A stretch of DNA of 31,406 bases, counting the filler, from Candidatus Woesearchaeota archaeon (GTDB lineage: Archaea; Nanobdellota; Nanobdellia; Woesearchaeales; WJIZ01): the NCBI GenBank assembly GCA_018221205.1. It is 2 parts of 2 records of this genome, joined end to end, with 100 filler letters (N's around TTAATTAATTAA, not from the genome) between each part and the next. Parts side by side here need not be neighbours in the genome. Positions count along the whole stretch, not along the records: positions 17,109 to 31,406 come from JAAOYF010000026.1; 1 more part is not named here. One strand, 5' to 3'. The notes beneath the pieces are model-generated. The model ran no database searches. It was not told the DNA's origin and worked only from the letters and a program-made list of their open reading frames with translations. Made by a program: the position numbers and the translations under genes. Below, in pieces: positions 2,562 to 31,406 of this stretch. The stretch's first letter is position 1. Every line of letters begins with the position of its first letter.

Positions 2562-4211
2562 ATGTCAGAGAGTATGCATTGGGCTGATCGGATAGCGCAG
2601 CTGGTTAAAGAAAGAGTTGAGAAAGATAAGCTTCTTCAGGCTGTTGTGAAGGAGAAAGGATATATCTGTTATGATGAAAAGACGCCTTCTGGAAATATCC
2701 ATGTGGGCTCTGGAAGGGGGTGGGTCATCTTTGACTGCGTAGCCAAAGCACTGCGCAAGATCGGCCTGAAAGGACGATTCATCCTGAGTTCTGATGATAT
2801 GGATCCTTTTGACAAGCCAAGCAAGGAATTAGGAGAGGAATGGAATAAATATTTAGGAATGCCGTTCAGGGATATGCCTTCTCCTCAAAAGGGCTATAAG
2901 AACTATGCTGATTATTATTTCTCTCGGGTAACAGAGAAGTTTCCTGAATGGGGTATAGAGGCTGAATTGCAAAGCACTGGAGAGCGGTATATCGATGGGA
3001 GTTTTAATCCTCAGATCAAGAAGATCCTTGATAATGCAGACAAAGTCAAGCAGATCTATATGGACCTGTATGGAGAGGATACCCCTGCTGCCAAAAAACT
3101 GCCTTTCAATGTCAAATGCCCTCAATGCGGGAAGATAGCCACCACTATTGCGACAGAATGGAACAAAGAGAAAGAAGAGATCTATTTCGAATGCAAAGAA
3201 AATGTTGTTAAATTTGCTCAAGGTTGCGGTCATAAAGGATGGATATCTCCCTACAATGGCAATGGGAAGTTTCCATGGAAAGTGGAATGGCCTGCGAAAT
3301 GGCCTATGATGGGTGTTGTCTATGAGATCGCAGGCAAGGATCATTTCACCAAAGGAGGGGCACGTACGATAGCAAATAAGATTGCAGTCGATGTCTTGGG
3401 CTATCCTCCTCCTGTGCCTTCTGACGGCTATAAGACTGGAAAAGGGTATGAGTTTTTTACTGTAGGCGGCGCTAAAATGAGCACTTCTAAAGGAACAGGC
3501 ATGTCATTCAGAGGAATATCGGAATATGCGCCTGCGAAGATGCTCAGGTATCTTATTGTCAAATCTCGTGTCCATGCTGTCCTTGACTTTGATCCATACA
3601 ATGATAATGATCTTTTATTACTTTATGATCGATATGACAAGACTGAAAAGGATTATTTTGAAGGGAAAGATGAATTGCAGAAAAGGGTGTATGAATTGAG
3701 CCATGTGGGTAAGATTCCTACATCATGTCCTCCACACATCCCCTTGAATACTGCTGCTTTTACGATCCAGATTGCTTTATTTGATGTTGATAAGGCGCTT
3801 GATATCCTGAAAGGCCTTGATATGGTGGACAAAGAAGCCTCTAAGGAGGATATTGAGGCCATCAAAGAAAGACTTGAATTTGCTCGACGGTGGGTGAAGG
3901 ATTTTGCTTCTGATCAGTATAAGTTCGAAGTTGCTACAAAAGTCAGTGAGGATGTCAAAAAAAGTCTTTCTGAGAAGCAGAAAGAGGCCCTTACACTTCT
4001 GAAAGTGAAGCTTTCTGCCAAAGATTATGGGCAGAAGGAATTATATGAAGAATTCTATAAGATAAAGGAAGAGACCAATGTTGAGATCAAGGATTTCTTT
4101 GAAGCTGCTTATTTAATCATCATCAACAAGAAAAGAGGGCCTAAACTGGCTGGTTTTATTCTTTCTCTAGGTAAAGAGAAAGTCATTGATTTATTGAATC
4201 AGGCTGTATAG
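2562..4211 (+). CDS. lysS: lysyl-tRNA synthetase, class I (archaeal type)
   Basis: N-terminal HWAD, TPSGNIHVG (HIGH-like), CxxC zinc motifs, WKVEWPAKW, GKDH, KMSTSKG and C-terminal GPKLA. Confidence 0.96.
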   Translation: MSESMHWADRIAQLVKERVEKDKLLQAVVKEKGYICYDEKTPSGNIHVGSGRGWVIFDCVAKALRKIGLKGRFILSSDDMDPFDKPSKELGEEWNKYLGMPFRDMPSPQKGYKNYADYYFSRVTEKFPEWGIEAELQSTGERYIDGSFNPQIKKILDNADKVKQIYMDLYGEDTPAAKKLPFNVKCPQCGKIATTIATEWNKEKEEIYFECKENVVKFAQGCGHKGWISPYNGNGKFPWKVEWPAKWPMMGVVYEIAGKDHFTKGGARTIANKIAVDVLGYPPPVPSDGYKTGKGYEFFTVGGAKMSTSKGTGMSFRGISEYAPAKMLRYLIVKSRVHAVLDFDPYNDNDLLLLYDRYDKTEKDYFEGKDELQKRVYELSHVGKIPTSCPPHIPLNTAAFTIQIALFDVDKALDILKGLDMVDKEASKEDIEAIKERLEFARRWVKDFASDQYKFEVATKVSEDVKKSLSEKQKEALTLLKVKLSAKDYGQKELYEEFYKIKEETNVEIKDFFEAAYLIIINKKRGPKLAGFILSLGKEKVIDLLNQAV

Positions 4212-17008: not shown

Positions 17009-17108
17009 NNNNNNNNNNNNNNNNNNNNNNNNNNNNNNNNNNNNNNNNNNNNTTAATTAATTAANNNNNNNNNNNNNNNNNNNNNNNNNNNNNNNNNNNN
17101 NNNNNNNN
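17009..17108. other. artificial contig-joining spacer (N runs around TTAATTAATTAA)
   Basis: 44 N, then TTAATTAATTAA (stop codons in all six frames), then 44 N. Confidence 0.97.
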
Positions 17109-17527: not shown

Positions 17528-18367
17528 TCACCTCAAAACAGAGTAAAAAGCATCAAATATGGACATATCAGTGCTTATCTGGAAGAAATCCATACCAAGG
17601 ACCTCTGCTTCATGCTTGAGGGTGGTAAAATGGCTGTCCATCCTCTGTGTGTAATCGCTCCTTGATTTAAGGGAAAAGTACACTCTTAGGTTCTCCTTTG
17701 ACTCCGCATCCTGAAGCTTGAAGTCTCCTTCCATCTCAGGCCGCTTCTCCATAGCATCCAGCACCTGGATAAGCCTTACCTCATGCCCGCTGAAATAATA
17801 GAGAGCTTCTCTGATCTCTTCAATAGGCATCAAAAAATCAGAGATTATGATGATTAAAGCCCTAGATCCTATGAATCTCTTATATTTCTGGGCTATATCC
17901 AGTATCCTGGTCTTACCTTCCTGTTTGATCTTATTGAGATAGTCTATCATAGAGACGAGCTGGCTCATGCCCCTCTTTGGCTGGTAGACCTCCAGATCCT
18001 CAGCAAAGGTGGAAAACTGGAATTTATCGTTGTTTTTCAGGGCCAGATAGGCAAAGCCCACTCCCAGCATGCTTGCATAATCAAACTTCTTTCCGAATCC
18101 CATAGAAGCAGATTTGTCCACAATGATATGCGCCACAAGGTTCTTCTCTTCCTCATAGTTCTTGATCATAAGATTATCGGTCCGGGCAAACACTCTCCAG
18201 TCTATGCCTCTGAAATCATCCCCTGGCGCATAGATCCTATGATCCTTGAAGATGATGCCCCTTCCCTGAGCAATAGATCTTCTTGGCCCAGAATAGCTGG
18301 AGGTAACCCTCTTACGGACAATAAGATTGAATCTGTTCAATCCTTCTAAAAACGTGGTGTCTATCAT
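17528..18367 (-). CDS. DUF58 family protein (MoxR-associated, vWA-like)
   Basis: GRGIIFKDHRIYAPGDDFRGIDWRVFART, DKSASM and IIISDF. Confidence 0.92.
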   Translation of the reverse strand: MIDTTFLEGLNRFNLIVRKRVTSSYSGPRRSIAQGRGIIFKDHRIYAPGDDFRGIDWRVFARTDNLMIKNYEEEKNLVAHIIVDKSASMGFGKKFDYASMLGVGFAYLALKNNDKFQFSTFAEDLEVYQPKRGMSQLVSMIDYLNKIKQEGKTRILDIAQKYKRFIGSRALIIIISDFLMPIEEIREALYYFSGHEVRLIQVLDAMEKRPEMEGDFKLQDAESKENLRVYFSLKSRSDYTQRMDSHFTTLKHEAEVLGMDFFQISTDMSIFDAFYSVLR

Positions 18368-18434
18368 TTTAGTTCGTGGGGCTTGCGAAGCAATGCCCTA
18401 CCCTTTCACTTTTGAAAAAGCCCTCATATATGCA

Positions 18435-19370
18435 TCAACGCACCTTCTTCATGATCTCTTTGATTGCATCATCTGGTGTCATTCCTTTCCTCTCTGCCTC
18501 GAAATTAAGGATGATCCTATGTCTGAGAACAGGATAGGCCATGGTCTCTATATCCTTGGTATTGACGTGTGTCCTGCCATCCAGGAGTGCTGATGCTTTA
18601 GCTGCCAGCACCAGACCGATAGAGGCCCTTGGAGAGGCTCCAAAAAGGATCAATTCCTTATTCTTCCTTGTCGCCTGCACAATAGACACTGCTTTCTTCC
18701 TTAAATCGTTCGCGATAGGCATCTGCTTCGACAGGTTCTGCAGAGAGAGTATATGTGTCTTATTGAGCATCGGCTTCAGCTTAGCGACCTTCTTGCTCTC
18801 TGTGTAGATATTGACGATCTTCAGCTCATCTTCATAATTTGGATAGTCCACCATGATCTTGAGCAAAAATCTATCCTGCTGTGCTTCTGGTAATGGATAT
18901 GTCCCCTCCTGTTCGATAGGGTTCTGAGTTGCGAGGACAAAGAACGGCATATCCAGCTGGAAAGTAGAGTTTCCTACACTCACCTGCTTCTCCTGCATCG
19001 CCTCAAGCAGAGCAGACTGTGTTTTAGGGGTTGCCCTATTGATCTCATCAGCCAGCAGGATGTTTGTGAACACAGGTCCTTGCTGGAACTTGAAGTCCCT
19101 CTTGCCCCCCTTCTCCTCGATGATATACGTTCCCGTGATATCCGAGGGCATCAGATCAGGAGTGCTCTGGATCCTATTGAACTTAAGGTCCATGAGCTCT
19201 GCCAGGGTCTTCACCGCCAGGGTCTTGGCCAGTCCTGGAAAACCCTCAAGCAATGCATTAGCATCGCTGAGTATGCAGATCATGATCTGCCTCAGTATCT
19301 CATCTTGACCGATGACTACTTTGTTGATCTCTTTAAACAGGCTATCGAATGCATTTTTATAATTCCTCAT
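18435..19370 (-). CDS. moxR: MoxR family AAA+ ATPase
   Basis: LLEGFPGLAKT, RIQSTPDLMPSDITG, LLADEINRATPKTQSALLEAMQE, ATQNPIEQEGTYPLPEAQQDRF and GASPRA. Confidence 0.96.
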   Translation of the reverse strand: MRNYKNAFDSLFKEINKVVIGQDEILRQIMICILSDANALLEGFPGLAKTLAVKTLAELMDLKFNRIQSTPDLMPSDITGTYIIEEKGGKRDFKFQQGPVFTNILLADEINRATPKTQSALLEAMQEKQVSVGNSTFQLDMPFFVLATQNPIEQEGTYPLPEAQQDRFLLKIMVDYPNYEDELKIVNIYTESKKVAKLKPMLNKTHILSLQNLSKQMPIANDLRKKAVSIVQATRKNKELILFGASPRASIGLVLAAKASALLDGRTHVNTKDIETMAYPVLRHRIILNFEAERKGMTPDDAIKEIMKKVR

Positions 19371-19379
19371 TTTGGCACC

Positions 19380-20129
19380 TCAAGTTTTTTTTCGTTCGAA
19401 ATATCTTTGTATGAGTAGTTGTTGCTCTTCTGTGAATTCAGTCTCATAGGCAGCTCCAGAGCTGATGAAGACTTCCCTGGGGAAGGAGCTCTGGAAAGTA
19501 TAGTCGCCAATCTCCTCAACATCGCTGAAATCAATATCCATACCGACTGGATTGATCTCCACCTCGATCTTCTCATCCCCTACCTGCATGATGGACTCTT
19601 CAGTTGTAGTGTATTGGCCCTGCTCTGTCTCGTTGCTTTCATCCACTGTGAATCGTTTCACCGCAGCATCCAGCACATCATTGATATCGATGATCTTCAC
19701 ATTCTGGCTTGCGATATAGAGAGAGGCACTCACTGTGACGATAAGCAGGAAGATGAGGATGACTGCCCGATGATAGGAGAAAAAGTTGCTCAGTTCTACT
19801 TTCTTCATATCATTGACAATACTTTCTTCGAGTGCTTCCAAGACGACATTGTCCTCATTCTGGTAGTCTCTCGCAGTGATAAGCTTATCTTTCAGGCCCC
19901 CATACTTACCCTCTACCCTCTTGACATAGTCGATCCTTCCCTGGACAAAGACAGAGGAAAAAAAGTAGATGATCGGTGGGAGGAATGCGTAGTTGGTGTT
20001 GACGCCGACCATGAAAAAGAAGAGATAAGAGACCGTGAGCAAGACAAGGGTCTTTATCAATACCTCAAAGATATTCACCTTTCTCAATAATGAATCGATC
20101 TCTTTGAGTATGTCTTTTATTCTTTCCAT
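19380..20129 (-). CDS. membrane protein of the MoxR/vWA operon
   Basis: About three hydrophobic segments, LKDKLITARD and an acidic C-terminal tail. Tightly packed in the operon. Confidence 0.75.
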   Translation of the reverse strand: MERIKDILKEIDSLLRKVNIFEVLIKTLVLLTVSYLFFFMVGVNTNYAFLPPIIYFFSSVFVQGRIDYVKRVEGKYGGLKDKLITARDYQNEDNVVLEALEESIVNDMKKVELSNFFSYHRAVILIFLLIVTVSASLYIASQNVKIIDINDVLDAAVKRFTVDESNETEQGQYTTTEESIMQVGDEKIEVEINPVGMDIDFSDVEEIGDYTFQSSFPREVFISSGAAYETEFTEEQQLLIQRYFERKKT

Positions 20130-20130
20130 A

Positions 20131-20628
20131 TTAACTGCATTCGCTCATATCGCCACCGCATATCTCCTCGATATCATTCTTGAGACGGTTGACCGTGCTT
20201 CTGTAGGCTGTAATAAGGCTCTCTTGGTTTTCAAGCTCTGACTTGACTGTGATAAGTTCAGATTGTGCCACCAACAATTGGTTGGTCTTCGTGACTAATT
20301 CATTGGTTCTGCTTGTAAGCTCTGTCTTCAGGTTGGCATTCTCGCCTGTCAGTTTTATGTTCTCCCCCCTGATATCAGAAAACTTACTGCTCAGCTCAGT
20401 CTCGTCTTGCTCCTTGACACGGAGATCTGCCGCAGTCTGATTCAACCTGGATTTCTGAAGAAAAAGCTCATCCGTCACGTCCTGCAGATTGGTCAATTGG
20501 GTGGTGTACTCTGCCGAGAGAGAGTTGTAATTCAGGTTATAGTACACACCGATGGCTGTCAACGAGACCGCCAAGAGCATGATGATAAACAACAGTCCTA
20601 GATTAAGATTTTTTTTCATGAAGCTCAT
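20131..20628 (-). CDS. membrane-anchored coiled-coil protein
   Basis: N-terminal hydrophobic helix followed by a long heptad-like region, ending CGGDMSECS. Confidence 0.75.
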   Translation of the reverse strand: MSFMKKNLNLGLLFIIMLLAVSLTAIGVYYNLNYNSLSAEYTTQLTNLQDVTDELFLQKSRLNQTAADLRVKEQDETELSSKFSDIRGENIKLTGENANLKTELTSRTNELVTKTNQLLVAQSELITVKSELENQESLITAYRSTVNRLKNDIEEICGGDMSECS

Positions 20629-23081
20629 TTTAACTGCACCCGGTATTTTTTATGTTCGAATATCTTCCTAATAATGATTTCGATTATGAAAATGAGTAAT
20701 GCAAATGCTAAGGGGTAGAGCTTTAAATCTTTTCTGATTAATTCCTTGCGTTCGCTGAAGCTCGCCAGTTCTCGCAAGATGTCATCGTCCAAGCCCAATA
20801 CCTTGCCTCCTGAAAGCTCGACCATCTCTTTCAGGCCAGGATCAGTGCCCAATGAATAATACTCTCGATAAGGATTGACTGCGATGATGCCGTCGAAAAA
20901 CTGATAATAGCCAGGATTCTCTGCGTTGTACACTGCCTTGTACAGGTCAGTGCCTTCCTTCGTGAACGTAAGGTCCTTTGAGACAGGGTATTTACTTGAT
21001 TTGACAAGGATCTCATTGCCCTCCCCTAAAAAGCCGTCATCGCTTACCATATAGATATCCTTGTCCCGCTCAGGATTTCCGACAGCGTAGTTGATCATTC
21101 TCGTCAGTAATTGTGAATTCTGGCTGGTGAGCAGCTGTCCTGCCCAGCTCGCGCCATCATCGGTCGCCAACGCGATGACCCTCCCTAATCCGAAGTTCCA
21201 GCTGACAACGATTGGATTGCCGTCGCCGGTGAAGATCAGGCTTCGTGCTCCGGATTTAGGGATGACAAAATTGACTCCAGTGACTCTAGCATTGAGGTCA
21301 AGATCTTGGGTGATGAAATGTTCCCGATCGATGATTGCAAGATTAGAGCTGCCCGAAAAGATTTGCTCTTTCGCCTCTGGCTTTCCGAAAAAGACATTGA
21401 GGAACTGGAATTCTGTCGGCTCAAAATAGTTGCCGTTTCCGATCGTCGCCAATGTCGTCATGAACTGCCTGTTTACATCGATCCCATAGAGCGCCGAGGG
21501 AAGTCCTACAGTATAAAGGGTGATGCCTTTCTGTGCCATCCTCTCTGCCACGATCTTAGGGACATGAGGCTCCTGGATCCTTCCCATTTTGCCGTCAGAG
21601 ATCAGGATCGCATTTTTGGTACCTTTTACTTTCTCCAGTGCTATTTCAGCCCACAACAATCCTTGATCGATCGCCGTCCCTTCTCCTTTTCCAAGGGTCT
21701 TGATTTTCTGGATGAGCATCTCGCGATTGTCTTTGAGCTCGACAGGATCAGAGACGATCTGCCCTAGGCTGGCGAAAGCTACCAATCCTACATTGATATC
21801 ATCTCTGAAATCCTCGACCATCTTCACCGCCATCCCTTTGCCAAGGTCCAAGGCAGAATCGTCTCCCCCTTTCTTGTATGAGAAATCCGCAAAGCTTTCA
21901 GAGACATCCATGACAATGACGATGTTATGCTTGAGAGGAGAGATGATCTTTCCTGCGCCCATCTTGACCGGAAGCATTCCTTCAAGAAGCGTCTCTTCAT
22001 AACCTCCTCTGTCATATGAGTTCTGTCCGCCTATGAACAGTATGCCGTTGCCGTCTATAAGATAGCCGGTGAGATCATCGACTCGTGAGGAGACCGAAGA
22101 ATAAGGGAGGTCATTGAAGACGATGGCCTGATAAGATGCCAATGATGAAGGCAGGCTTGGCATCTTCGTGAGCTTGTATATCCTTTTCAGGCCGTCCTCA
22201 AGGGGGCTTGATTTCGTCGTCACAAAAAGTACTTTTGGTTTGGGGACCGACCTTACGGTCTTATAGAATATATTGTTCTCTGTAAAGAAATCTTCCAGGA
22301 CGATCTGGGCAGTGACTTTATGGTATCCCTCTCCAAAACTCTTGATGATCTCCTTTTCGAAGACACTCTGACCTGAAAACTCCAGCTTATCATCGACGAA
22401 GATCTGCAGAGTAAATGCTGGCTGGCTGCCTACGAAGTTCACCTTGACGACAAATCGGTTGGGCGTGCCCTCGATGGCCTCAGAAGGGCCGATGATCTCG
22501 ACAGAGGCGTCATTCCGTGTCGGATCGATGTCAAGGGCGAACAATCTCGTATCAGATACTCGTGCATATAATCCCACATCTCTCAGGCTCTTCCCGAAAT
22601 TGTTTTTGCCGTCTGATATGATCAGCAGATTATCATTCCCTTCTATCTTCCTGAGGATACCCTCTCCTAACTCTGATTTGGTGCCTGCGCTGATCTGGCT
22701 TATCTCCATCACCTTCCCTTTGAGCTTGTCTCTCGTATTTTCCAGCAGCTCTGGAGAGAACACATCCATCGACACACTATTGTCGACGAGAACTTTAGTG
22801 GTAGGATCTCCATGAGTAGTGATCTCCTTAGTGGTGAATGGATAGGTAAAAGCAAGAAGAAGTGCAAGAAGGATGAGCGTCCTGGTGATGAGCATAGAGA
22901 ACCGGAGCCATTTATTCCGTTCTCTGAAACTCTTCTTCTCTTCTGGGTTCCGGAATTTCACAAGATCGAAATAGAGGAAATAGAGGAGCAGGAAGAAGAT
23001 AGGCACGATAAGGAGGAGAATATAGGCTTGTTCCATGCAATAGCCCTGATAGCAGATGCTTGTAGGCAGTGCCCGTATCAT
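20625..23081 (-). CDS. large membrane-anchored vWA-domain protein
   Basis: Two MIDAS-like motifs (DNSVSM...ISDG and DVSESF...ISDG), a GGQNSY segment, and N- and C-terminal TM helices. Confidence 0.85.
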   Translation of the reverse strand: MIRALPTSICYQGYCMEQAYILLLIVPIFFLLLYFLYFDLVKFRNPEEKKSFRERNKWLRFSMLITRTLILLALLLAFTYPFTTKEITTHGDPTTKVLVDNSVSMDVFSPELLENTRDKLKGKVMEISQISAGTKSELGEGILRKIEGNDNLLIISDGKNNFGKSLRDVGLYARVSDTRLFALDIDPTRNDASVEIIGPSEAIEGTPNRFVVKVNFVGSQPAFTLQIFVDDKLEFSGQSVFEKEIIKSFGEGYHKVTAQIVLEDFFTENNIFYKTVRSVPKPKVLFVTTKSSPLEDGLKRIYKLTKMPSLPSSLASYQAIVFNDLPYSSVSSRVDDLTGYLIDGNGILFIGGQNSYDRGGYEETLLEGMLPVKMGAGKIISPLKHNIVIVMDVSESFADFSYKKGGDDSALDLGKGMAVKMVEDFRDDINVGLVAFASLGQIVSDPVELKDNREMLIQKIKTLGKGEGTAIDQGLLWAEIALEKVKGTKNAILISDGKMGRIQEPHVPKIVAERMAQKGITLYTVGLPSALYGIDVNRQFMTTLATIGNGNYFEPTEFQFLNVFFGKPEAKEQIFSGSSNLAIIDREHFITQDLDLNARVTGVNFVIPKSGARSLIFTGDGNPIVVSWNFGLGRVIALATDDGASWAGQLLTSQNSQLLTRMINYAVGNPERDKDIYMVSDDGFLGEGNEILVKSSKYPVSKDLTFTKEGTDLYKAVYNAENPGYYQFFDGIIAVNPYREYYSLGTDPGLKEMVELSGGKVLGLDDDILRELASFSERKELIRKDLKLYPLAFALLIFIIEIIIRKIFEHKKYRVQLK

Positions 23082-24850
23082 AGGTCACCTCTCCGTTTGA
23101 TGTAATAGAGCTCAAAGAGGAATAGGAGAAGGGCGATGAACAACAGATAGCTCGATAGATTGACATCCAGGTCGACCTTGTCCTGGGTCTCGAAGAATGC
23201 GGTTTCGTTGATGACTTCTGATTCCTTATAGATATTTGATTCCACTGGATCGAGGAGGTTCACTGCTATCCTCTCCCCATCAAGGGTATGGAAGCCTGCA
23301 GTGTCAAGAAGGGTGGTTGATTTATTAGTCTTCAAGTAGATATCTCCGGTGCGATAATTGAAATTCGCAAGGCTCTTCTTCCCGAGCAGGGCATTGATTA
23401 CATCATCCCAGAAAAGGGGATAAGCTATTTGGTCTTTGAAACCTGCATATTCATCGATGATACCATAATAGAACAGGCCCTGCTCCATCACGAAGATGGG
23501 TGTCTGCTCGGTTGTCGAAGCAAGTACGACCGATTCCTGTCCGATAGTGAGAGTATAGAACGCTTCCAAGTCGCTGAAACATCGTGGATTGCTGATTCGA
23601 GAAGTATACTCATTGACAATATCAGTGCAGGCGCTCTGCTCTGCGCGCTCGAAAGTGCCGACAGAGAACTGTGTCAGGCCCTGCAGATTGAGCTGATTGA
23701 GATCTTCCTGGCTTGTCAGGACAACTTTTCCTCCATCGTCACGATATTTCCTGATGTCCCGGAACATATTAGGCAGCAATTGGCTTGGATCGACCTCATT
23801 GACGACAATGACATCATGTCTGAAGTCAGGAACAACAGGAGGTTGTGCTATCTCGACGTCAAAATGGGCGTTTGCCTCCAGGGCATCTAATAAGTGGCTG
23901 TCTTGATTGTTTGTGATGAGCAGTACTCTCAGATTACGATCATATGGATTCATCACATAGAGGGTATTGTCATTCGGAAGGGCGTCTCCGGAAAGGATCT
24001 CCAGTTTGGTCTCCCCTCTGAAGATATCGAAAGTGATCCGTTCGATGGAGTTGGCGGCTATCTGCACTCTTACTGTCTCCTGCCTCTCTGATGAATCCAA
24101 CCTGACATCCACAGCCTTGTCTCGTCCGCCATAGTTCTTGACGAACGCCTCTCCCTTCCCTCTGATGATGTTAAGATTGACAAATCCAAGGTTCTCCTTC
24201 GGAGAACCGATCGGTATGAAGACGACTCTTTTGTCGCCTGCCTCGAGCAATTTTTTTGCGGCAAGGACATCATCATTATTATTGACGGCAAAATCAGAAT
24301 AGACGATGATGTTCCCTTTCTGCTCTCCCAAGATATCTTGGGCAAGCATCATCGCTCCGTCCAGTCTCGTCGAGACATCTTTGGCTGCTAGGTTCGAGAC
24401 AAGGGACCTAGCTCTTCCTCCTGAGACGTTGCTAGCAACAAGGACAGGATTCTCCTCAGCGAGTATCAAAGAAGTTCGCCCTTTTATGAGGTTGAGAAGA
24501 TCCTGCTTCCGTGAATCTATCCTTGTCAAGACTCCTTCTCTCGTATGCATAGATGCGCTCACATCGACGATGGCGATAGTATTGAGGGAGAATGCATCTA
24601 CCGGGACCTGGATATGGGGATTGGCTGCAGAGAGCGCCAGGAGGATGATAAAAAACAATTGGATGAAGAATAATAATCTCACCAGCAATTTCTGAAGAAT
24701 CGAATTATATTTCTTTTCTTTCTGATAATCTGCGAAAAAGAGCAGGGAAGGTATCTTCACGACCCTCGGCTTCTGCTTGATCAGATAGAGAAGTATCAGG
24801 GCGATGATAAAGGATAATAGATACAATCCTTCTGCTGTTTCAAATGCCAT
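23078..24850 (-). CDS. BatA-type N-terminus, vWA-domain membrane protein
   Basis: LILLYLIKQKP...IPSLLF (BatA-like), DVSASM MIDAS and a C-terminal TM helix. ATGA overlap with the next gene. Confidence 0.88.
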   Translation of the reverse strand: MAFETAEGLYLLSFIIALILLYLIKQKPRVVKIPSLLFFADYQKEKKYNSILQKLLVRLLFFIQLFFIILLALSAANPHIQVPVDAFSLNTIAIVDVSASMHTREGVLTRIDSRKQDLLNLIKGRTSLILAEENPVLVASNVSGGRARSLVSNLAAKDVSTRLDGAMMLAQDILGEQKGNIIVYSDFAVNNNDDVLAAKKLLEAGDKRVVFIPIGSPKENLGFVNLNIIRGKGEAFVKNYGGRDKAVDVRLDSSERQETVRVQIAANSIERITFDIFRGETKLEILSGDALPNDNTLYVMNPYDRNLRVLLITNNQDSHLLDALEANAHFDVEIAQPPVVPDFRHDVIVVNEVDPSQLLPNMFRDIRKYRDDGGKVVLTSQEDLNQLNLQGLTQFSVGTFERAEQSACTDIVNEYTSRISNPRCFSDLEAFYTLTIGQESVVLASTTEQTPIFVMEQGLFYYGIIDEYAGFKDQIAYPLFWDDVINALLGKKSLANFNYRTGDIYLKTNKSTTLLDTAGFHTLDGERIAVNLLDPVESNIYKESEVINETAFFETQDKVDLDVNLSSYLLFIALLLFLFELYYIKRRGDL

Positions 24851-25938: not shown

Positions 25939-26241
25939 GTGCTTAAAATAGAAAAAAGCATAAAGCACGATCGCTACCTTGAAGACCTATTCCAGAGGCT
26001 ATCTTCTCAATATGATATCATCCTGAAAAACGTCCCGCTCTATTCAAAAAGAAAAAGAAAAGTTGCAGAGATCGATATCCTTGCGTGTAGAGATGGTGTC
26101 TGTGATATCTACGAAGTGAAATGCAGTCACCGAATAACGAAAGCGAGAAAACAATTGAGAAAGATTGAGAAGCTGCTTCCATCAAAAGTAAGATCATCAT
26201 TCTTTTTCTGTGGAGAATCAGGCTTATTGACAGTGATCTAG
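25939..26241 (+). CDS. small PD-(D/E)XK nuclease-fold protein
   Basis: AEIDILA...IYEVKCS...KARKQL motif order, GTG start, convergent with thrS. Confidence 0.7.
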   Translation: MLKIEKSIKHDRYLEDLFQRLSSQYDIILKNVPLYSKRKRKVAEIDILACRDGVCDIYEVKCSHRITKARKQLRKIEKLLPSKVRSSFFFCGESGLLTVI

Positions 26242-28103
26242 CCGACAAAGATCGGCCTTCTGCTTAATTCTTTAGGCAGTGCCAGTGGATAGAACGGCAT
26301 GTCTTTTGTTTCCTTCTTGACATGATCCATCAAGCTTTTGACATCCATCTCAACGAGATCTTTCTGTCCTCGGATTCTGACTGGAAGCTTGCCTGATGCC
26401 TTCTCTTTCTCACCAATGACGACGATGAGAGATGCCCATTCCCTCTCAGCTTCTCTTATCTTTTTGCCGACATGCAATGTCCGATCATCAAGATCAGCTC
26501 GGATACTGTTCTTCTTCAACTCATCAACAAGCTGATTAGCATCTTGAGTAAAACTCTCTGAGACAGGAATGACTCTCACTTGGACAGGGCTCAACCACAT
26601 CGGAAGCTTACCCACTTTGCCTGCTTTCTGATCAAAGGCTGCTTTCTCGAGCAGCGCATACATCACTCTTTCGATGGCACCAGAAGGGCTGCAATGCAGC
26701 ACCAGAGGATGCTTCTGCTTGCTATCCTTATCAGTGAACTTCATATCATATCTTTCGCCATTCTCGATATCGATCTGGTCTGTGCTCAAAGCAGATGCCT
26801 TGTCAAGCGTGTCGACAAAATTGAATTCATATTTCAAGATAAAATAGAATATCCGTTCATCCCACATCTCTAAAAGAATGGGCTTGTTTAATTTCTTCAC
26901 CAATCCAAAGATAAAATCTTTATTCTTCTCGAAGAAATCCTTCGTTGTTCGAAGTGCCATCTCGACATCTTCATCTCCTAGTCCCATATTATTCAGGACG
27001 CTTAAGCAGAGGTCAAATCTGATCTTGAACTCATCCATGGCTTGGTTGATGTCCGCGACCAGAGCATGGCAATCAGGCATGGTGAATGCACGCAACCTTC
27101 GCAACCCTGTCAGCTCTCCGCTCTGTTCTCTCCGGAAAGAATATCGTGTCATTTCATAGAGCTTAAGGGGAAGGTCCTTATAGCTGATTGTCGCATCATG
27201 CGCAATCAGGAACTGGCCGAAGCAGGCAGCAAATCTCAAGAAGAATTTCCTCTTATCAGAATCGATCTGATATTGCCGTGCAGGAAACCGCTGAAGATAT
27301 TTTGATAATGATGGGTGATTCATATCATACATGATCGGAGTTTCCACTTCCACTCCCCCATATTCAATAACTCGCTTATTGACATACTCCTCGATCAGCT
27401 TCTTCACCAACCGTCCCTTAGGATAATAACGCATGTTGCCGCCATCAGAAGCAGGTTCATAATCGACCAATTCAAGTTTCCTCATGAATTTGACATGGGG
27501 GGGCTCTTGATCTACAGCTCGTTTCTTATCTTTCTCATAAAACGCAAATTTCTTCAGTTTTGGATGGTTGGAATAATCAAATTTATCCACTTCATGGAGC
27601 TCGCCTTCTGGAGTCAGGATGTGCCAATAGCTTGTAAGCTTCCGCTCTTTCTTCAAAGAATCAGTCTCATCATCTTTTTTCGCATCTCCAGGGCCAAACT
27701 CTCTGCTCAGCTCTGCTAAGGGATGGCCTTTGACGCTGATATTGAAGGATTTATACCATCCAAAGGGACTGCGATGGACAGCATAGTCATTCTTCAGCTC
27801 TTTTTCCATGCCATCAAGCACTTGAAGTGCAGTATCCGGCTTGGAAGGAGTATTCGTCAGATGGACATAAGGATAAAGCACGATGGTCTTCTCTTTCACT
27901 TGGTCAGCGATATCTTTCACATGGCCGATGGCTTGCTTGATGATATCTTTTGGATTAGCTTCATCTCTCTCCTCGACAGAGAGAAACACCACTAAGCAAT
28001 TCTCGACCTTCTCTTTCTTGTTTTTCAGTTCCTCGGGTTGTTTGATAGCTTTCTTCTTCGCCTCGAACTCAATAAAGTCAGAGTGGAGTGCTAATAGTTT
28101 CAT
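26238..28103 (-). CDS. thrS: threonyl-tRNA synthetase, archaeal type with N-terminal editing domain
   Basis: LYPYVHL and RSPFGWYKSF...KGHPLAELSR (archaeal editing domain), LRFAACFGQF, FRREQSGE, FTMPDCH, LHCSPSGAIER and an anticodon-binding domain. Confidence 0.97.
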   Translation of the reverse strand: MKLLALHSDFIEFEAKKKAIKQPEELKNKKEKVENCLVVFLSVEERDEANPKDIIKQAIGHVKDIADQVKEKTIVLYPYVHLTNTPSKPDTALQVLDGMEKELKNDYAVHRSPFGWYKSFNISVKGHPLAELSREFGPGDAKKDDETDSLKKERKLTSYWHILTPEGELHEVDKFDYSNHPKLKKFAFYEKDKKRAVDQEPPHVKFMRKLELVDYEPASDGGNMRYYPKGRLVKKLIEEYVNKRVIEYGGVEVETPIMYDMNHPSLSKYLQRFPARQYQIDSDKRKFFLRFAACFGQFLIAHDATISYKDLPLKLYEMTRYSFRREQSGELTGLRRLRAFTMPDCHALVADINQAMDEFKIRFDLCLSVLNNMGLGDEDVEMALRTTKDFFEKNKDFIFGLVKKLNKPILLEMWDERIFYFILKYEFNFVDTLDKASALSTDQIDIENGERYDMKFTDKDSKQKHPLVLHCSPSGAIERVMYALLEKAAFDQKAGKVGKLPMWLSPVQVRVIPVSESFTQDANQLVDELKKNSIRADLDDRTLHVGKKIREAEREWASLIVVIGEKEKASGKLPVRIRGQKDLVEMDVKSLMDHVKKETKDMPFYPLALPKELSRRPIFVG

Positions 28104-28240
28104 CTTCTATCACTTCCTTTGCGAACGAAGTGAGCGCGTGGTGCTTTAGCACCACTATTTTCGTTAACGTTTTTAATTTCGCTTGCGAAATTCAAAAGGT
28201 TAAACTCGATGAAATCTGAATGCAACGCTAAGAGTTTCAT
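28100..28240 (-). other. duplicated, synonymously re-coded thrS 5' end (13 codons) plus a palindromic insert, forming a 46-codon upstream ORF coupled to thrS
   Basis: ATG AAA CTC TTA GCG TTG CAT TCA GAT TTC ATC GAG TTT (28240-28202) and thrS ATG AAA CTA TTA GCA CTC CAC TCT GAC TTT ATT GAG TTC both encode MKLLALHSDFIEF. The upstream frame ends at TGA 28102-28100, overlapping the thrS ATG. Confidence 0.9.
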
Positions 28241-28277
28241 AAAAGAAATGAATTGATAAAGGATTTATAAAACTTAC

Positions 28278-29201
28278 TTAAGATTTATTCCAGGCGCTAA
28301 CTACATGGACTGTATGACCGATTGTCTTTCCTTGTTCATATAATCTTAGCGCTTCTTTTGCATTAATTCTATGTCTTGTCAATCCTTTTTTTAGCCTTTC
28401 ACCATCCATGTTAAATTGTTGAACAATCCCAAGATTGATTGCATCAACCATATGGGGCGGCAGTGCATAGAAATCAAATTCAAGTTTTTGCTCAGCTTTC
28501 GCATAGCTTTGTAAGACTTCTTCTGGTTCAGTTTGAACTTTGATACCAGTAAATATTTCTTTATAAGAATATCCTTCACCTTCAACCATATTCTTGACTA
28601 TATCTAGAGGTACTCGTCCCCCGATTGCCATCACCAATCTACCTCGAGATTTTAAGACTTGTTTAGCTTGAACAAGACAAGCATAATGGGGTAATAATAA
28701 ATATGCTTCTGCTAATTCATTGTTAAATGATGCTAAATGCTGTTCATTAAAAAAGGAGCCGCTTGTTTCTAATTCAAACTCTTCATCTGAAATAGGAATG
28801 TTTGCTAGGTTTTCCACGATAATATCTAACTTAATCCCCCTTTCAATAAAGGGCTCTAGGAGATTTCCAGTGTAACCTTGAAGTGAACGGCCCCCCATAT
28901 AAGGAGACAGATTCATTAAAGCTAGTGATAAGTCATTCTCATCAAGATTAGTTACAAAAAGATTATATGCAATAAATCCTAGTTTTACTCCTATAGCATC
29001 AGCACCTGCACCAGTGCCAACAATACCTAAGTCAGAGACAGCCCCTCCATATTTATGCAAACCACTCAGAACGAATGGTGCCCAGTTATCCCAAACATTA
29101 TCTTTGATAGAATAGGAATCAGCTGGATTTATTTTGATTCTGCCAGATTTGCTGTAGTTGACTGTTTGTCGCATCATATCTGTGATATCTATCATGACCA
29201 T
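28278..29201 (-). CDS. putative class I SAM-dependent methyltransferase
   Basis: Motif I-like DLGIVGTGAGADAIG, GNLLEP and IVENLANIP (NPP-like motif IV region). AT-rich relative to flanking genes. Confidence 0.65.
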   Translation of the reverse strand: MVMIDITDMMRQTVNYSKSGRIKINPADSYSIKDNVWDNWAPFVLSGLHKYGGAVSDLGIVGTGAGADAIGVKLGFIAYNLFVTNLDENDLSLALMNLSPYMGGRSLQGYTGNLLEPFIERGIKLDIIVENLANIPISDEEFELETSGSFFNEQHLASFNNELAEAYLLLPHYACLVQAKQVLKSRGRLVMAIGGRVPLDIVKNMVEGEGYSYKEIFTGIKVQTEPEEVLQSYAKAEQKLEFDFYALPPHMVDAINLGIVQQFNMDGERLKKGLTRHRINAKEALRLYEQGKTIGHTVHVVSAWNKS

Positions 29202-29230
29202 CAAGAATGAAAATCATAATATAATATTTC

Positions 29231-29248
29231 TACCGGATATATCTGGTA
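29231..29248. promoter_or_regulatory. palindromic operator-like site between the HTH regulator and the methyltransferase
   Basis: TACCGGATATATCTGGTA, with 16 of 18 positions dyad-symmetric. Confidence 0.5.
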
Positions 29249-29884
29249 TTAGATCTTTCTTGCTATAGAATTGATAAGCTTGTTTTCAGCCTTAAGTAAA
29301 TGTTCTCCCGCAGTAGCAGGGCTTAATTTCATTGCTTTGGCAATTCTTAATATGGTAACCTTCCTTGGTTGAGAATAATAACCCTTATCATAGGCATACT
29401 TGAAAATCTTCTTTTGCTGTTGAGATAGCAATGAGTGCTCGAATCCAACTTCACCTATGTACAATACTTTCAGCAAACCCATCTTCTTAGCTTCAACGAT
29501 TATTTTATCGATTGATTGCCTATCTACCACCCCGATATGCCAATATTCATAGCCATGAGATACTGTATGCAAGTCAATAAAGAAACCATGGTATTTCTGG
29601 ATTACATTCTGGATGTAGCCTTTCTGGGAAATGACGACTAAGAGAAGCAGGGTTTCAGTGCTCCTCTCAATTTCCTCTACTAGCTTAAATCCTTTGGCTT
29701 TATGTAGATAGGAGACTACCTCATCAAATTTTCGTGGATTCCCGGTAATGTAATAGAAATACTGCTTTTCTTTTGGGTGGGTTGATTGAATATCAACAAC
29801 TGTTATATGGTGCTTTGGGAATTTTATGCTTAAACCAGTCTCAGCACAATTTCTATGCCGGACTTTAAAGCTAAGTTTATACAT
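29249..29884 (-). CDS. Bat-like (HTH_10) archaeal transcriptional regulator
   Basis: C-terminal LSQQQKKIFKYAYDKGYYSQPRKVTILRIAKAMKLSPATAGEHLLKAENKL, typical of bacterio-opsin activator-type HTH domains. Confidence 0.88.
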   Translation of the reverse strand: MYKLSFKVRHRNCAETGLSIKFPKHHITVVDIQSTHPKEKQYFYYITGNPRKFDEVVSYLHKAKGFKLVEEIERSTETLLLLVVISQKGYIQNVIQKYHGFFIDLHTVSHGYEYWHIGVVDRQSIDKIIVEAKKMGLLKVLYIGEVGFEHSLLSQQQKKIFKYAYDKGYYSQPRKVTILRIAKAMKLSPATAGEHLLKAENKLINSIARKI

Positions 29885-29932
29885 AAGACAGCAAAACAGA
29901 GCAGGATATAAAAAGGTTAAGAAAAAAAAGAA

Positions 29933-29949
29933 TGGGCCCGCGGAGATTT
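29933..29949 (-). repeat. displaced variant copy of the tRNA-Ile 3' end (T-loop end, T-stem, acceptor strand, discriminator)
   Basis: TGGGCCCGCGGAGATTT versus TGGGCCCGGTGAGATTT at 30815-30831 (15/17 identical), followed on the minus strand by TTCTTTTTTTT. Confidence 0.8.
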
Positions 29950-30119
29950 TCCGGCAAAAGCATAATCTGACTTAAGAACACTAGACATTTTCTCTGTGCG
30001 TAGGGTATATAAATCAAAAAAAGCCATTTCAATCACATAGGAGATATTCAACTCTCAAATCATGATTTCAGAAAAATCATTTACAGAGTTTCATTGTATT
30101 TAGCAAATGGTGATTAAAA

Positions 30120-30833
30120 ATGATATTTGATTTAACGTCAATTAATTTCAGTAGTTCAGACAGAAAGAAGGGGCTGGCTTTGCCGAGAAAAATGAGCATA
30201 GATTTAGCTGAAGAAATTGGGATTCATATCGGCGATGGAAGTATGAACATCTATTCCAAAAAAGGATTCTATCAGCTTCGTGGCCATATCCATGATGACA
30301 AACCTCATTACTTGAGAAGAATTTCAGAATTATACAAAAAACTGTATAATATCGATGTAAACATTCGAAATATGCCTTCAACAGGAGTAATTGGATTTCA
30401 AGTATGGAGTGATGCGCTCGTTGAATTCAAAAGCAGTATCCTAAAGCTTCCACTAGGCAAAAAAACGGACATCAGAATTCCTAAAGTGATTGATAGCAAA
30501 AAGTTATTTTTTGCATTTATGCGTGGATTATTCGATACAGATGGATGTTTATATCTAGAGAAAAGGAACTATGTATATTATCCACGAGTAGAGATCAGAA
30601 TGGCTTCTGAATCATTACGGAACCATATCATTACCCTATCACAGAAATATGGGTTGCCTATAAAGCATTTTAGATTCAAAAGAAAAGAAAAAAACTGGGA
30701 GGACATATGTACCTTACGATTAAATGGTTTACCAAGTCTCAAGATATGGAATAATCTTATCGGAACAAATAACCCAAAACACCAAAGAAAAATGCGTTTA
30801 TTGAGTAAAAAAGGTGGGCCCGGTGAGATTTGA
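30120..30833 (+). CDS. free-standing two-motif LAGLIDADG (DOD-type) homing endonuclease
   Basis: LAEEIGIHIGDG and FMRGLFDTDG motifs with its own GGTGAT RBS and no intein splicing motifs. The 3' end overlaps tRNA-Ile in antisense. Confidence 0.9.
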   Translation: MIFDLTSINFSSSDRKKGLALPRKMSIDLAEEIGIHIGDGSMNIYSKKGFYQLRGHIHDDKPHYLRRISELYKKLYNIDVNIRNMPSTGVIGFQVWSDALVEFKSSILKLPLGKKTDIRIPKVIDSKKLFFAFMRGLFDTDGCLYLEKRNYVYYPRVEIRMASESLRNHIITLSQKYGLPIKHFRFKRKEKNWEDICTLRLNGLPSLKIWNNLIGTNNPKHQRKMRLLSKKGGPGEI

Positions 30834-30907
30834 ACTCACGACCTCACGATATCAGCGCAACTCTGGCATATCAGTCGTGCGCAATAGCCAGGCTATGCTA
30901 CGGGCCC
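30815..30907 (-). tRNA. tRNA-Ile(GAU) with an 18-nt intron at 37/38 (intron 30851-30868)
   Basis: Acceptor GGGCCCG/CGGGCCC+A, anticodon stem CACGA/TCGTG, loop CT-GAT-A^A and T-arm GTGAG-TTCAAAT-CTCAC. Confidence 0.92.
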
Positions 30908-30988
30908 ATGATAAAAAGGGGGACTGAGGAGCTTTGCTCCGAACGTCGCCCGCTTTTTACGAGATTTTTTGCAAAAATCTCCCATCGA

Positions 30989-31092
30989 CGCCCCCTCCCA
31001 GATTTGAACTGGGGACCTTGTGATGACTGTAGCGGATATAACAGTTTCGTAGGTTTAAACCACACACGCTCTAACCGCTAAGCTAAGGGGGC
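30989..31092 (-). tRNA. tRNA-Asn(GUU) with two introns: 17 nt at 30/31 (31046-31062) and 14 nt at 37/38 (31025-31038)
   Basis: Acceptor GCCCCCT/AGGGGGC+G, spliced anticodon arm TGTGA-CTGTTAA-TCACA and T-arm CCCAG-TTCAAAT-CTGGG. Both introns form BHB motifs, giving a 73-nt mature body. Confidence 0.9.
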
Positions 31093-31119
31093 ACAAGAAT
31101 TTTAGGTTCTAAATTTGAT

Positions 31120-31404
31120 TTATAAACGTTTCGAATAAATATTCTGAACCTTTACCAAATGTTTCGGATTATTCATTCCAATGAGTTTCATCCATAAATC
31201 AAGATTTGTAAATCCGGGAATTTCTAGCCTAAAATGTATTGCTTTTCGAGAAACGGAACCGTAGAAGCCCAAACCTCTTAGCCTTTGTATGATTCCAACT
31301 AGGAAAGTCCGCGATTTGCTAGCTATCTCTAATCTTGGATAGTAAGGATTCTCTCTATGTTGCCTACTTAGTACGACACAACCATCAGTATCAAATAACC
31401 CCCT
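31120..31404 (-). CDS. second LAGLIDADG homing endonuclease, C-terminal part (5' end outside the window)
   Basis: Hand-translated as RGLFDTDGCVVLSRQHRENPYYPRLEI...LWMKLIGMNNPKHLVKVQNIYSKRL*. It shares RGLFDTDGC, YYPR.EI and W..LIG.NNPKH with 30120-30833. Confidence 0.88.
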   Translation of the reverse strand, partial: RGLFDTDGCVVLSRQHRENPYYPRLEIASKSRTFLVGIIQRLRGLGFYGSVSRKAIHFRLEIPGFTNLDLWMKLIGMNNPKHLVKVQNIYSKRL

Positions 31405-31406
31405 CA

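Follow-up and report, generated by a model that had tools for sequence, protein, structure and literature searches.

Stand-alone LAGLIDADG nuclease cassettes, hairpin arrays and duplicated gene ends in a woesearchaeal genome and other DPANN archaea

The DNA analysed here (the window, 31,406 nucleotides (nt) in all) comes from a Candidatus Woesearchaeota archaeon (assembly GCA_018221205.1), whose genome assembly of 1.28 Mb is 95% complete. The feature under study lies on contig C74 (JAAOYF010000026.1), which ends at 31406. Close to this end are two stand-alone LAGLIDADG endonuclease genes beside transfer RNA (tRNA) genes, a displaced copy (stub) of the 3' end of tRNA-Ile, and a displaced copy of the start of thrS that is separated from the live gene by hairpins. 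Two kinds of selfish insert would keep the host gene whole at such sites by supplying a new end, namely homing LAGLIDADG cassettes and separate hairpin arrays; this reading is given a probability of about two in three.

Duplicated gene ends in the window

The features concerned are as follows.

26238..28103, minus strand: thrS, archaeal-type threonyl-tRNA synthetase, 621 amino acids (aa) (Pfam tRNA-Thr_ED, tRNA-synt_2b, HGTP_anticodon)
28065..28103, minus strand: live copy of the duplicated thrS N-terminus
28100..28240, minus strand: 46-codon upstream frame from the displaced thrS start
28104..28201, no strand: nuclease-free hairpin array, 98 nt (stems 28164-28203, 28138-28155 and about 28110-28133)
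28202..28240, minus strand: displaced thrS codons 1-13 (repeat search)
29933..29949, minus strand: stub, the displaced tRNA-Ile 3' end (positions 57-73), 17 nt (direct-repeat search)
29979..30013, plus strand: cassette promoter, a conserved 9-base upstream motif (29979-29987) and a TATA-like box (30006-30013)
30120..30833, plus strand: LAGLIDADG gene 1, monomeric double-motif endonuclease of the tRNA-Ile clade, 237 aa (open reading frame (ORF), Pfam)
30815..30907, minus strand: live tRNA-Ile(GAU) with a 19-nt intron at 37/38 (30850-30868) (Rfam tRNA)
30909..30988, no strand: hairpin array of a dispersed repeat family (fold z -2.24)
30989..31092, minus strand: tRNA read as Asn(GUU), with two introns (30/31 and 37/38) (Rfam tRNA, 49 bits)
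31120..31404, minus strand: LAGLIDADG gene 2, 3' part, cut by the contig end (Pfam, ORF)

The tRNA-Ile gene is complete without the stub, and gene 1 lies on the opposite strand with its own promoter. The live 3' end of the tRNA (30815-30831), which is the replacement end, overlaps the last codons of gene 1, and the stub lies 880 nt away on the promoter side of that gene. This arrangement, an endonuclease ORF between a replacement terminus and a displaced native one, is that of the mobile ORFs (mORFs) of fungal mitochondria. Stub and live end differ at two positions of the T stem, and the junction falls between T-loop positions 56 and 57. The T stem of the stub matches live tRNA-Ile alleles in other genomes, and the stubs of three related loci end at the same T-loop base. 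Gene 1 carries LAGLIDADG domains only, in a stand-alone ORF (Pfam); it is 38% identical to gene 2, and both exceed the Pfam cut-off for LAGLIDADG_3. An earlier reading of this DNA from sequence alone (the sequence-only reading) had proposed both the paralogous nuclease genes adjoining tRNAs and the recoded tRNA terminus, and both are present. The fold at 29945-30090 was no better than that of shuffled sequence. The intron of the live tRNA-Ile closes with a brief direct repetition of the anticodon loop, which looks like the trace of a small insertion with duplication.

No intein was found at the gene 1 locus, nor any Rfam intron family, bulge-helix-bulge junctions being outside that search. An integrative element that targets tRNA genes is not indicated either: no second ORF occurs in the cassette, no match to PF00589 occurs in the genome, and the stub is not identical to the live end, unlike the near-identical attL/attR repeats.

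At thrS, codons 1-13 are present twice at an offset of 137 nt, with the same peptide, 10 synonymous and no non-synonymous differences, and no nuclease gene; the recoded N-terminus described earlier is thus confirmed. A TATA-like box (about 28264-28272) stands about 25 nt above the displaced start, which has the position of the start codon in most orthologues. The frame that begins at this displaced start runs through the array without interruption and ends in a stop codon that shares bases with the live start. A Shine-Dalgarno-like stretch (about 28109-28117, minus strand) lies within the array, and the frame is likely to serve as a translational relay. The array (fold at 28110-28203, z -2.65) matched only itself in the array search of its own genome. 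No N-terminal copy was found at 17 thrS loci of the order or at 76 metagenome loci, many of these from other archaeal groups. A sigma-70 promoter scan, a kind not suited to archaea, was at chance level.

The isotype of the tRNA read as Asn was inferred by hand from stem pairing; ARAGORN called Leu. The stop codon of gene 2 lies 27 nt ahead of the 5' end of this tRNA. The 5' part of gene 2 is on contig C38, which has an 83-nt overlap with the end of C74. The nearest relatives of gene 2 (54-62% identical) are likewise beside tRNAs, of which two were read as Asn. Inspection by eye revealed no tRNA-Asn stub upstream of gene 2, and the fold at 31090-31160 was no better than shuffled sequence. The array at 30909-30988 has no flanking duplication (score 9). 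Near-identical copies of it are present at C12:16435 and C64:24435 and a partial copy at C45:11179, and one low-depth contig, which may be another organism's, carries a different 28-nt hairpin in place of 30909-30986. The two hairpin clusters, which had been described as similar, are alike in architecture and not in sequence.

Nuclease cassettes across DPANN genomes

In the genome of the window, ten ORF matches represent nine cassettes, all of which lie at a tRNA or protein terminus. A cassette of about 0.9 kb consists of one ORF with its own promoter, without intein, intron or integrase. Six of the nine have a clear stub, at tRNA-iMet 3', tRNA-Ala 5', tRNA-Arg 3', tRNA-Ile 3', the metK start and the ppsA end. 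For the nuclease gene on contig C1, a reading in which it ends in 5S ribosomal RNA (rRNA) was rejected, the sequence there being the displaced ppsA tail. The G+C content (GC) of the cassettes is 0.32-0.38 against a gene median of 0.43; eight of the nine fall below the 5th percentile and the ninth below the 10th.

Across the order, the profile search matched 66 of 121 genomes, a tally that counts intein domains as well as genome G124, whose loci were excluded from the sample. The loci sampled are, among the matches listed (20 others lay outside the list), open frames of less than about 420 aa; removal of six near contig ends and three duplicates from 106 ORF matches left 97 stand-alone genes, seven of them from the genome of the window. 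Adjacency to tRNA was called with a purpose-made detector (limit 68 nt from the stop), and the remainder was read by eye. The detector placed a tRNA within this distance in 66 of 97 genes, against 6 of 89 control windows. Reading by eye added 17 genes with a tRNA downstream and seven with one upstream on the same strand (in tandem), which brings the number at a tRNA end to 90 of 97. Of the seven others, four adjoin protein starts and three are truncated or frameshifted. Two of the protein starts are those of metK, with stubs, and two lack stubs; the latter are presumably DUF763 and ribosomal protein L11. RNase HII starts were considered as targets and rejected, as tRNA-iMet lies upstream at those loci.

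A tRNA stub was defined by an anchored search for the terminus on the far side of the cassette (score of at least 9), for which 82 loci were testable; the reverse complements of the same loci and 905 cross-locus pairs served as controls. Stubs were found at 19 of 82 loci (four of six from the own genome and 15 of 76 others), compared with one of 82 reverse complements and 1.2% of the cross-locus pairs. They are 14-28 nt long and occur in three cassette geometries. Counted by gene side, a stub accompanied 15 of 87 sides with a nuclease within 1.3 kb, 13 of these spanning the gene, and none of 248 controls. Both metK loci with a nuclease have a stub; among 27 metK loci without one, 26 were under the stub threshold and one flagged match was judged by eye to be due to chance. 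In a held-out sample of the phylum (profile matches in 57 of 151 genomes), a tRNA was found at 12 of 21 genes by the detector and at seven more by eye, and a stub at one of 12 loci.

With counts of 19/82, 1/12 and, among the relatives of gene 1 described below, 5/57, stubs are real but confined to a minority. Some stubs are identical to the live end, which points to recent arrival. The association between stand-alone nuclease genes and duplicated termini, the absence of which was to have counted against the sequence-only reading, is present across genomes. A DPANN-wide family of intron-less, intein-less elements that occupy conserved gene ends and rebuild them is supported, much as that reading had suggested. 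Its proposal that translation genes are the targets is not supported, since ppsA, metK and tpiA are metabolic.

Among the relatives of gene 1, 62 of 73 scorable loci have a tRNA called by the detector, 56 of the 73 lie at tRNA-Ile, and four copies of 73 are broken. All five stubs belong to the 3' class, and one of these loci (L380) is seemingly the same as another (L360). The relatives occur mostly in records titled Woesearchaeota, Pacearchaeota, Nanoarchaeota and other DPANN, and in some titled 'uncultured Methanosarcinales'. One scan of one clade for viral carriers of the cassette gave 113 pattern matches, none of which was confirmed. In a quick tree of the nucleases (where the label 'RNaseHII' stands for iMet and one of two L110 labels is misassigned), the starred clades have a common target across host families, and in three starred pairs the two ends of a single tRNA type have the same nuclease. 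Nuclease phylogeny follows the target gene, an agreement that the sequence-only reading had asked to be examined. Target-linked clades are the pattern predicted by site-specific homing, with cleavage presumed from sequence.

The catalytic aspartates of gene 1, D39 and D141, are invariant in alignment A1, and both acids are retained in 93 of 96 proteins. The predicted structure (mean predicted local distance difference test score 87.9) matches the folds of I-Tsp061I and I-DmoI, which together with intein endonucleases are the nearest structures (profile E 2.4e-18 to 2dch, Foldseek E 3.9e-11). With two helices, the catalytic acids and the canonical fold, the modelled protein is a LAGLIDADG double-motif monomer. 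Domesticated LAGLIDADG proteins of the WhiA type have lost their catalytic residues, which these relatives keep.

A conserved 9-base motif occurs about 20 nt upstream of a TATA-like box in 52 of 96 cassette leaders and in none on the opposite strand. It is present in 10 of 21 leaders of the held-out set and in only 10 of 73 in the Ile clade. In the own genome (G000) the motif is found ahead of host genes as well, which code for an RNase_H_2 exonuclease, for a PD-(D/E)XK nuclease and for small unannotated proteins; these sites are C19:12441, C27:6486, C48:94, C52:10264 and C65:53369. The cassettes may borrow a DNA-processing regulon, of which the motif-bearing genes would be candidate members.

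A promoter common to host nuclease genes is also what might be expected if the enzymes were domesticated host nucleases retained beside tRNAs, with the stubs as relics of arrival. Their role might then be to cleave the tRNA-like attachment sites of incoming viruses and plasmids, or it might concern tRNA loci with introns. The link to tRNA-Ile, deeply conserved across DPANN and mostly stub-less, agrees with such a role. Domestication is nevertheless quite unlikely, given the patchy presence of the genes in both the order and the phylum, their low GC, the broken copies, the stubs still identical to the live end and the occurrence of one nuclease clade at either end of the same tRNA type.

Nuclease-free duplications and hairpin arrays

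Duplications without a nuclease were sought in the own genome with an unbiased peptide scan of 1,306 ORFs and with a hairpin scan. Starts are duplicated at the genes for triosephosphate isomerase (TIM; tpiA), CDC48, a DRG-type GTPase and GH57, and ends at those for NnrD, DUF3179 and a hypothetical protein as well as at several tRNAs. Nine nuclease-free protein pairs (eight with an array and one without) have a proportion of synonymous differences (pS) of 0.61 and of non-synonymous differences (pN) of 0.04, and two cassette protein pairs have pS 1.08 and pN 0.10, although detection of the pairs through peptide likeness biases them to low pN. The copies differ as distant orthologues do, and two pairs are identical; the 35-nt copy at the GTPase gene is perfect. 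A pN far below pS, which emerged from the comparison of copies suggested at the outset, indicates that most copies diverged while both coded for protein, and points to alleles joined by recombination more than to decay in place.

In all five array-bearing N-terminal cases that were read, the frame from the old start stays open and its stop is no more than 8 nt from the new start, and 24 of 90 control frames are open; such upstream frames probably relay ribosomes to the rebuilt start. At GH57 (G000 C1:43040-43340, L326) the start is present in three copies separated by two different arrays. A new ribosome-binding stretch comes after each array, and this triple start is the result of serial insertions. 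At G000 C28:37870-37990 (L330) an array seemingly interrupts a protein N-terminus in frame, with a 19-nt copy on either side. At G000 C5:2163-2272 the first codons of a gene, which is taken to be fibrillarin-like, coincide with an array hairpin module.

Among tRNA sides without a nearby nuclease, 10 of 161 (six in other genomes) have a stub 64-161 nt away, and none of 248 controls do. Hairpins occur within nine of these ten; one (L093) could be a longer piece of tRNA. Two loci outside the own genome (L274 and L315) are clear array-filled duplications of tRNA ends. The tRNA of L274 (genome G049) has them at both ends and lies beside an Ile cassette, and in genome G015 (L058) the 5' end of one tRNA adjoins a nuclease and its 3' end an array-filled stub.

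The arrays are mosaics of shuffled hairpin modules, 60-160 nt long, at 49 sites of the own genome. Most sites have no duplication; the 11 of 49 that are flanked give a figure biased upward, as the seeds were partly picked from known duplications. Among hairpin clusters chosen without this bias, direct repeats flank 7 of 31 against none of 31 controls, two of the seven being array-module repeats. Where present, the duplications are 11-48 nt long, and a conserved end-hairpin is found at 18 sites. One array module is present in 37 of 151 order genomes. The 48 arrays examined in other genomes have no excess of flanking repeats: a score of at least 14 was reached for the B module in 0 of 28 and 2 of 20, with 2 and 1 in the controls. 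No Rfam family matched the arrays. A Y1 tyrosine transposase, which marks the repetitive extragenic palindrome/bacterial interspersed mosaic element (REP/BIME) systems with a REP-associated tyrosine transposase (RAYT), is not indicated, as PF01797 had no match in the 95% complete genome.

Could the segment between two copies be an RNA-level intron, cut by the tRNA splicing endonuclease, with the duplication merely its splice substrate? The related tRNAs are rich in introns, an intron lies at or beside the stub junction in several loci, and array modules occur inside one tRNA intron (L295). Under collaborative homing, an intron at the nuclease target would protect the linked allele, but the enrichment of introns by side was not significant: introns in the T arm were counted in 18 of 45 tRNAs of the 3' type and 7 of 33 of the 5' type (p 0.09), and introns in the D arm in 4 of 33 of the 5' type and 4 of 45 of the 3' type, though the background tRNA set held false calls. 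Removal of the segment by splicing is highly improbable as a general explanation, since the tRNA-Ile of the window is whole without its stub and carries the nuclease gene antisense under a separate promoter, and since new ribosome-binding stretches and coupled stops before rebuilt starts would be needless if the insert were spliced out.

The sequence-only reading had taken the hairpins for scars left by decayed cassettes. More broadly, cassettes and arrays might be one family in two stages, a hairpin-filled duplication being either a cassette that has lost its ORF or a non-autonomous copy placed in breaks made by LAGLIDADG enzymes in trans. Both classes have the same outcome and hit the same range of sites, namely the ends of tRNAs and the start and stop regions of genes; both also end exactly at the functional terminus with synonymous recoding. 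A movement of yeast GC clusters by intron endonucleases has been proposed, as the available text of PMC4478555 notes. Against a single family, array modules are missing from the cassette spacers, and none was found in the cassette leaders of the own genome; the hairpin enrichment once expected there amounts to strong hairpins in 2 of 19 stub-to-gene spacers. The cassette promoter motif is listed at no array site, and the arrays are dispersed, largely without duplication and without repeat excess for the B module elsewhere. No stub or short scar marks the nuclease-free metK and thrS loci surveyed, and duplications as perfect as that of the GTPase gene are what fresh insertion predicts. Moreover, GH57, NnrD, DUF3179 and TIM are unlikely each to have had a dedicated nuclease; hypothetical genes are also among the targets, many of which are weakly conserved. 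The scar model is not supported. A single family in two stages is therefore unlikely, the odds are somewhat against any scar link between arrays and cassettes, and the arrays are probably a separate repeat family.

In the preferred reading of two kinds of insert, the nuclease would cut cassette-free alleles near the gene end, here in the T arm of tRNA-Ile, and repair from a cassette-bearing copy would import the nuclease gene together with a recoded terminus that is no longer cut. The old end would stay as a stub, the short second homology arm in distant hosts, and would erode once homing stops. An array would insert with a long target duplication through a mobilising enzyme, and insertions in a gene end would survive only where that end is rebuilt. 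At start codons, the leftover start would be kept as an open frame that hands ribosomes to the new start.

Several observations weigh against this reading. Most cassettes have no detectable stub (63/82, 52/57 and 11/12 in the three samples). The large 5'-tRNA-Ile group is wholly without stubs and may be old and vertically inherited, and about 20 cassette-linked tRNA-Ile genes are intron-less (74-75 nt), which leaves immunity there unexplained. In score, cassette junctions are a little nearer to the array end-hairpin than the remaining spacer windows (Mann-Whitney p 0.001), a weak likeness that would favour one family, with none of 19 reaching a score of 8. In one metagenome locus present as two records (L170 and L171), the stop codon of a LAGLIDADG gene (about 2850-4004; about 385 aa, with additional N- and C-terminal regions) overlaps the thrS start, and no stub was seen there; this too would suit a common origin. 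No empty allele of the same species was found, the best thrS relatives being 78% identical, and contigs from sequencing runs X1 and X2 gave no joint spanning either insert. As mobilisers of the arrays, PF01797, PF01609, PF00078, PF00589 and PF07282 were unmatched in the own genome, other transposase families lying outside this search. The genomes sampled are not independent of each other, and the peptide-based detection of the protein pairs has been mentioned above. Cleavage and mobility of the cassettes are inferred from sequence.

A more extended model is doubtful: a genome-wide DPANN homing economy free of introns, in which dozens of target-specific LAGLIDADG cassettes under a shared promoter of DNA exchange or damage sweep through tRNA and enzyme gene ends from lineage to lineage, and in which the breaks capture arrays and so yield duplications, relay frames and tRNA introns.

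Some neighbouring features were also recorded. Between the thrS array and the tRNA-Ile stub lie a 308-aa ORF without Pfam match (28278-29204, minus strand) and a 211-aa protein with a C-terminal HTH_10 domain (29249-29884, minus strand), both of GC 0.37, which may form a small acquired block. Language-model features of the former resemble those of S-adenosylmethionine-dependent methyltransferases (score 0.98), and 10-61% of the cluster members carry the PrmA family. A MoxR-type ATPase and von Willebrand A (BatA-like) cluster occupies 17528-24850 (minus strand), BatA and VWA_2 having been matched in a 590-aa ORF and the rest read by eye. Two runs of N at 17009-17108 mark the join of contigs C73 and C74, and the two halves are not known to be neighbours.

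Significance and comparison with known systems

The terminus-replacing design is extended by these cassettes from a handful of fungal mitochondrial genes to archaeal chromosomes and to both ends of tRNAs. They are also a source of numerous natural meganucleases. As stub and live gene together disclose the target in the genome, nuclease specificity becomes directly testable. Orphan tRNA fragments and duplicated starts that confuse DPANN annotation are explained. Together, the elements likely let selfish DNA occupy essential genes without an intron or intein. If homing drive operates in these archaea, their cells would have to exchange DNA regularly. Beside the cassettes, the arrays represent a second element. 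A 2026 preprint on Asgard tRNA introns leaves the arrival of introns open, its main text containing neither 'homing' nor 'LAGLIDADG' (10.64898/2026.10.13.758758); a homing economy with array capture, if true, would offer a testable route for the gain of archaeal tRNA introns.

The closest design is that of the fungal mitochondrial mORFs, reported for Allomyces macrogynus atp6 and for atp6, atp9, cox2 and nad3 of Glomus (PMC3630166). In that account, as in the cassettes, a free-standing and mostly LAGLIDADG ORF brings a replacement terminus and displaces the native one. The ppsA cassette has the layout of an mORF, which bears out the earlier suggestion that the general design is known from fungal mitochondria. 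As described there, mORFs are organellar, replace protein C-termini only and have termini hundreds of bases long, whereas the cassettes lie on an archaeal chromosome, mostly at the 5' and 3' ends of tRNAs but also at N-termini, and fall into many target-specific clades.

Free-standing endonucleases of phage T4, including SegB at a tRNA cluster, are known for intronless and collaborative homing (PMC2988022, PMC10448857). Like the cassettes, they are encoded independently of introns and inteins, beside conserved genes and under promoters of their own. In contrast, they are GIY-YIG or HNH enzymes that cut hundreds to thousands of bases from the gene, and the available text of these reports describes no rebuilt terminus; the cassettes encode LAGLIDADG enzymes, and their insertion splits the gene end.

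The nearest archaeal report concerns tRNA-Thr(GGU) of Caldiarchaeum subterraneum, where a tRNA 5' fragment, a one-ORF insert and a full tRNA with an extra intron follow one another, and where an empty allele is present in the same population (PMC3293823). In the available text of that report it is a single locus of 1,868 bp treated as a transposable element. Its ORF is predicted there to encode a DNA-binding or recombination protein.

The same monomeric double-motif fold and catalytic acids are found in I-Tsp061I and I-DmoI of archaeal rRNA introns and in the intein endonucleases PI-PfuI and TliVMA. These lie inside spliced introns or inteins, while the cassette genes stand alone; in the available text of PMC6125680, DPANN LAGLIDADG genes appear solely within rRNA group I introns. 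The arrays resemble yeast GC clusters (PMC4478555), REP/BIME mosaics, MITEs and insertion with long target duplication (PMC2853133), so far as these sources describe them, in their dispersed and shuffled hairpin modules and possible direct repeats. Yeast GC clusters are described with repeats of 2-3 nt (PMC4478555), compared with 11-48 nt for the arrays, whose duplications stop at functional gene ends and often carry synonymous recoding. No publication on DPANN stand-alone LAGLIDADG cassettes or on the arrays was found in a search that left out most subscription papers and supplements. Set beside these systems, the cassettes are an archaeal variant of a known selfish design, and an unusually widespread one.

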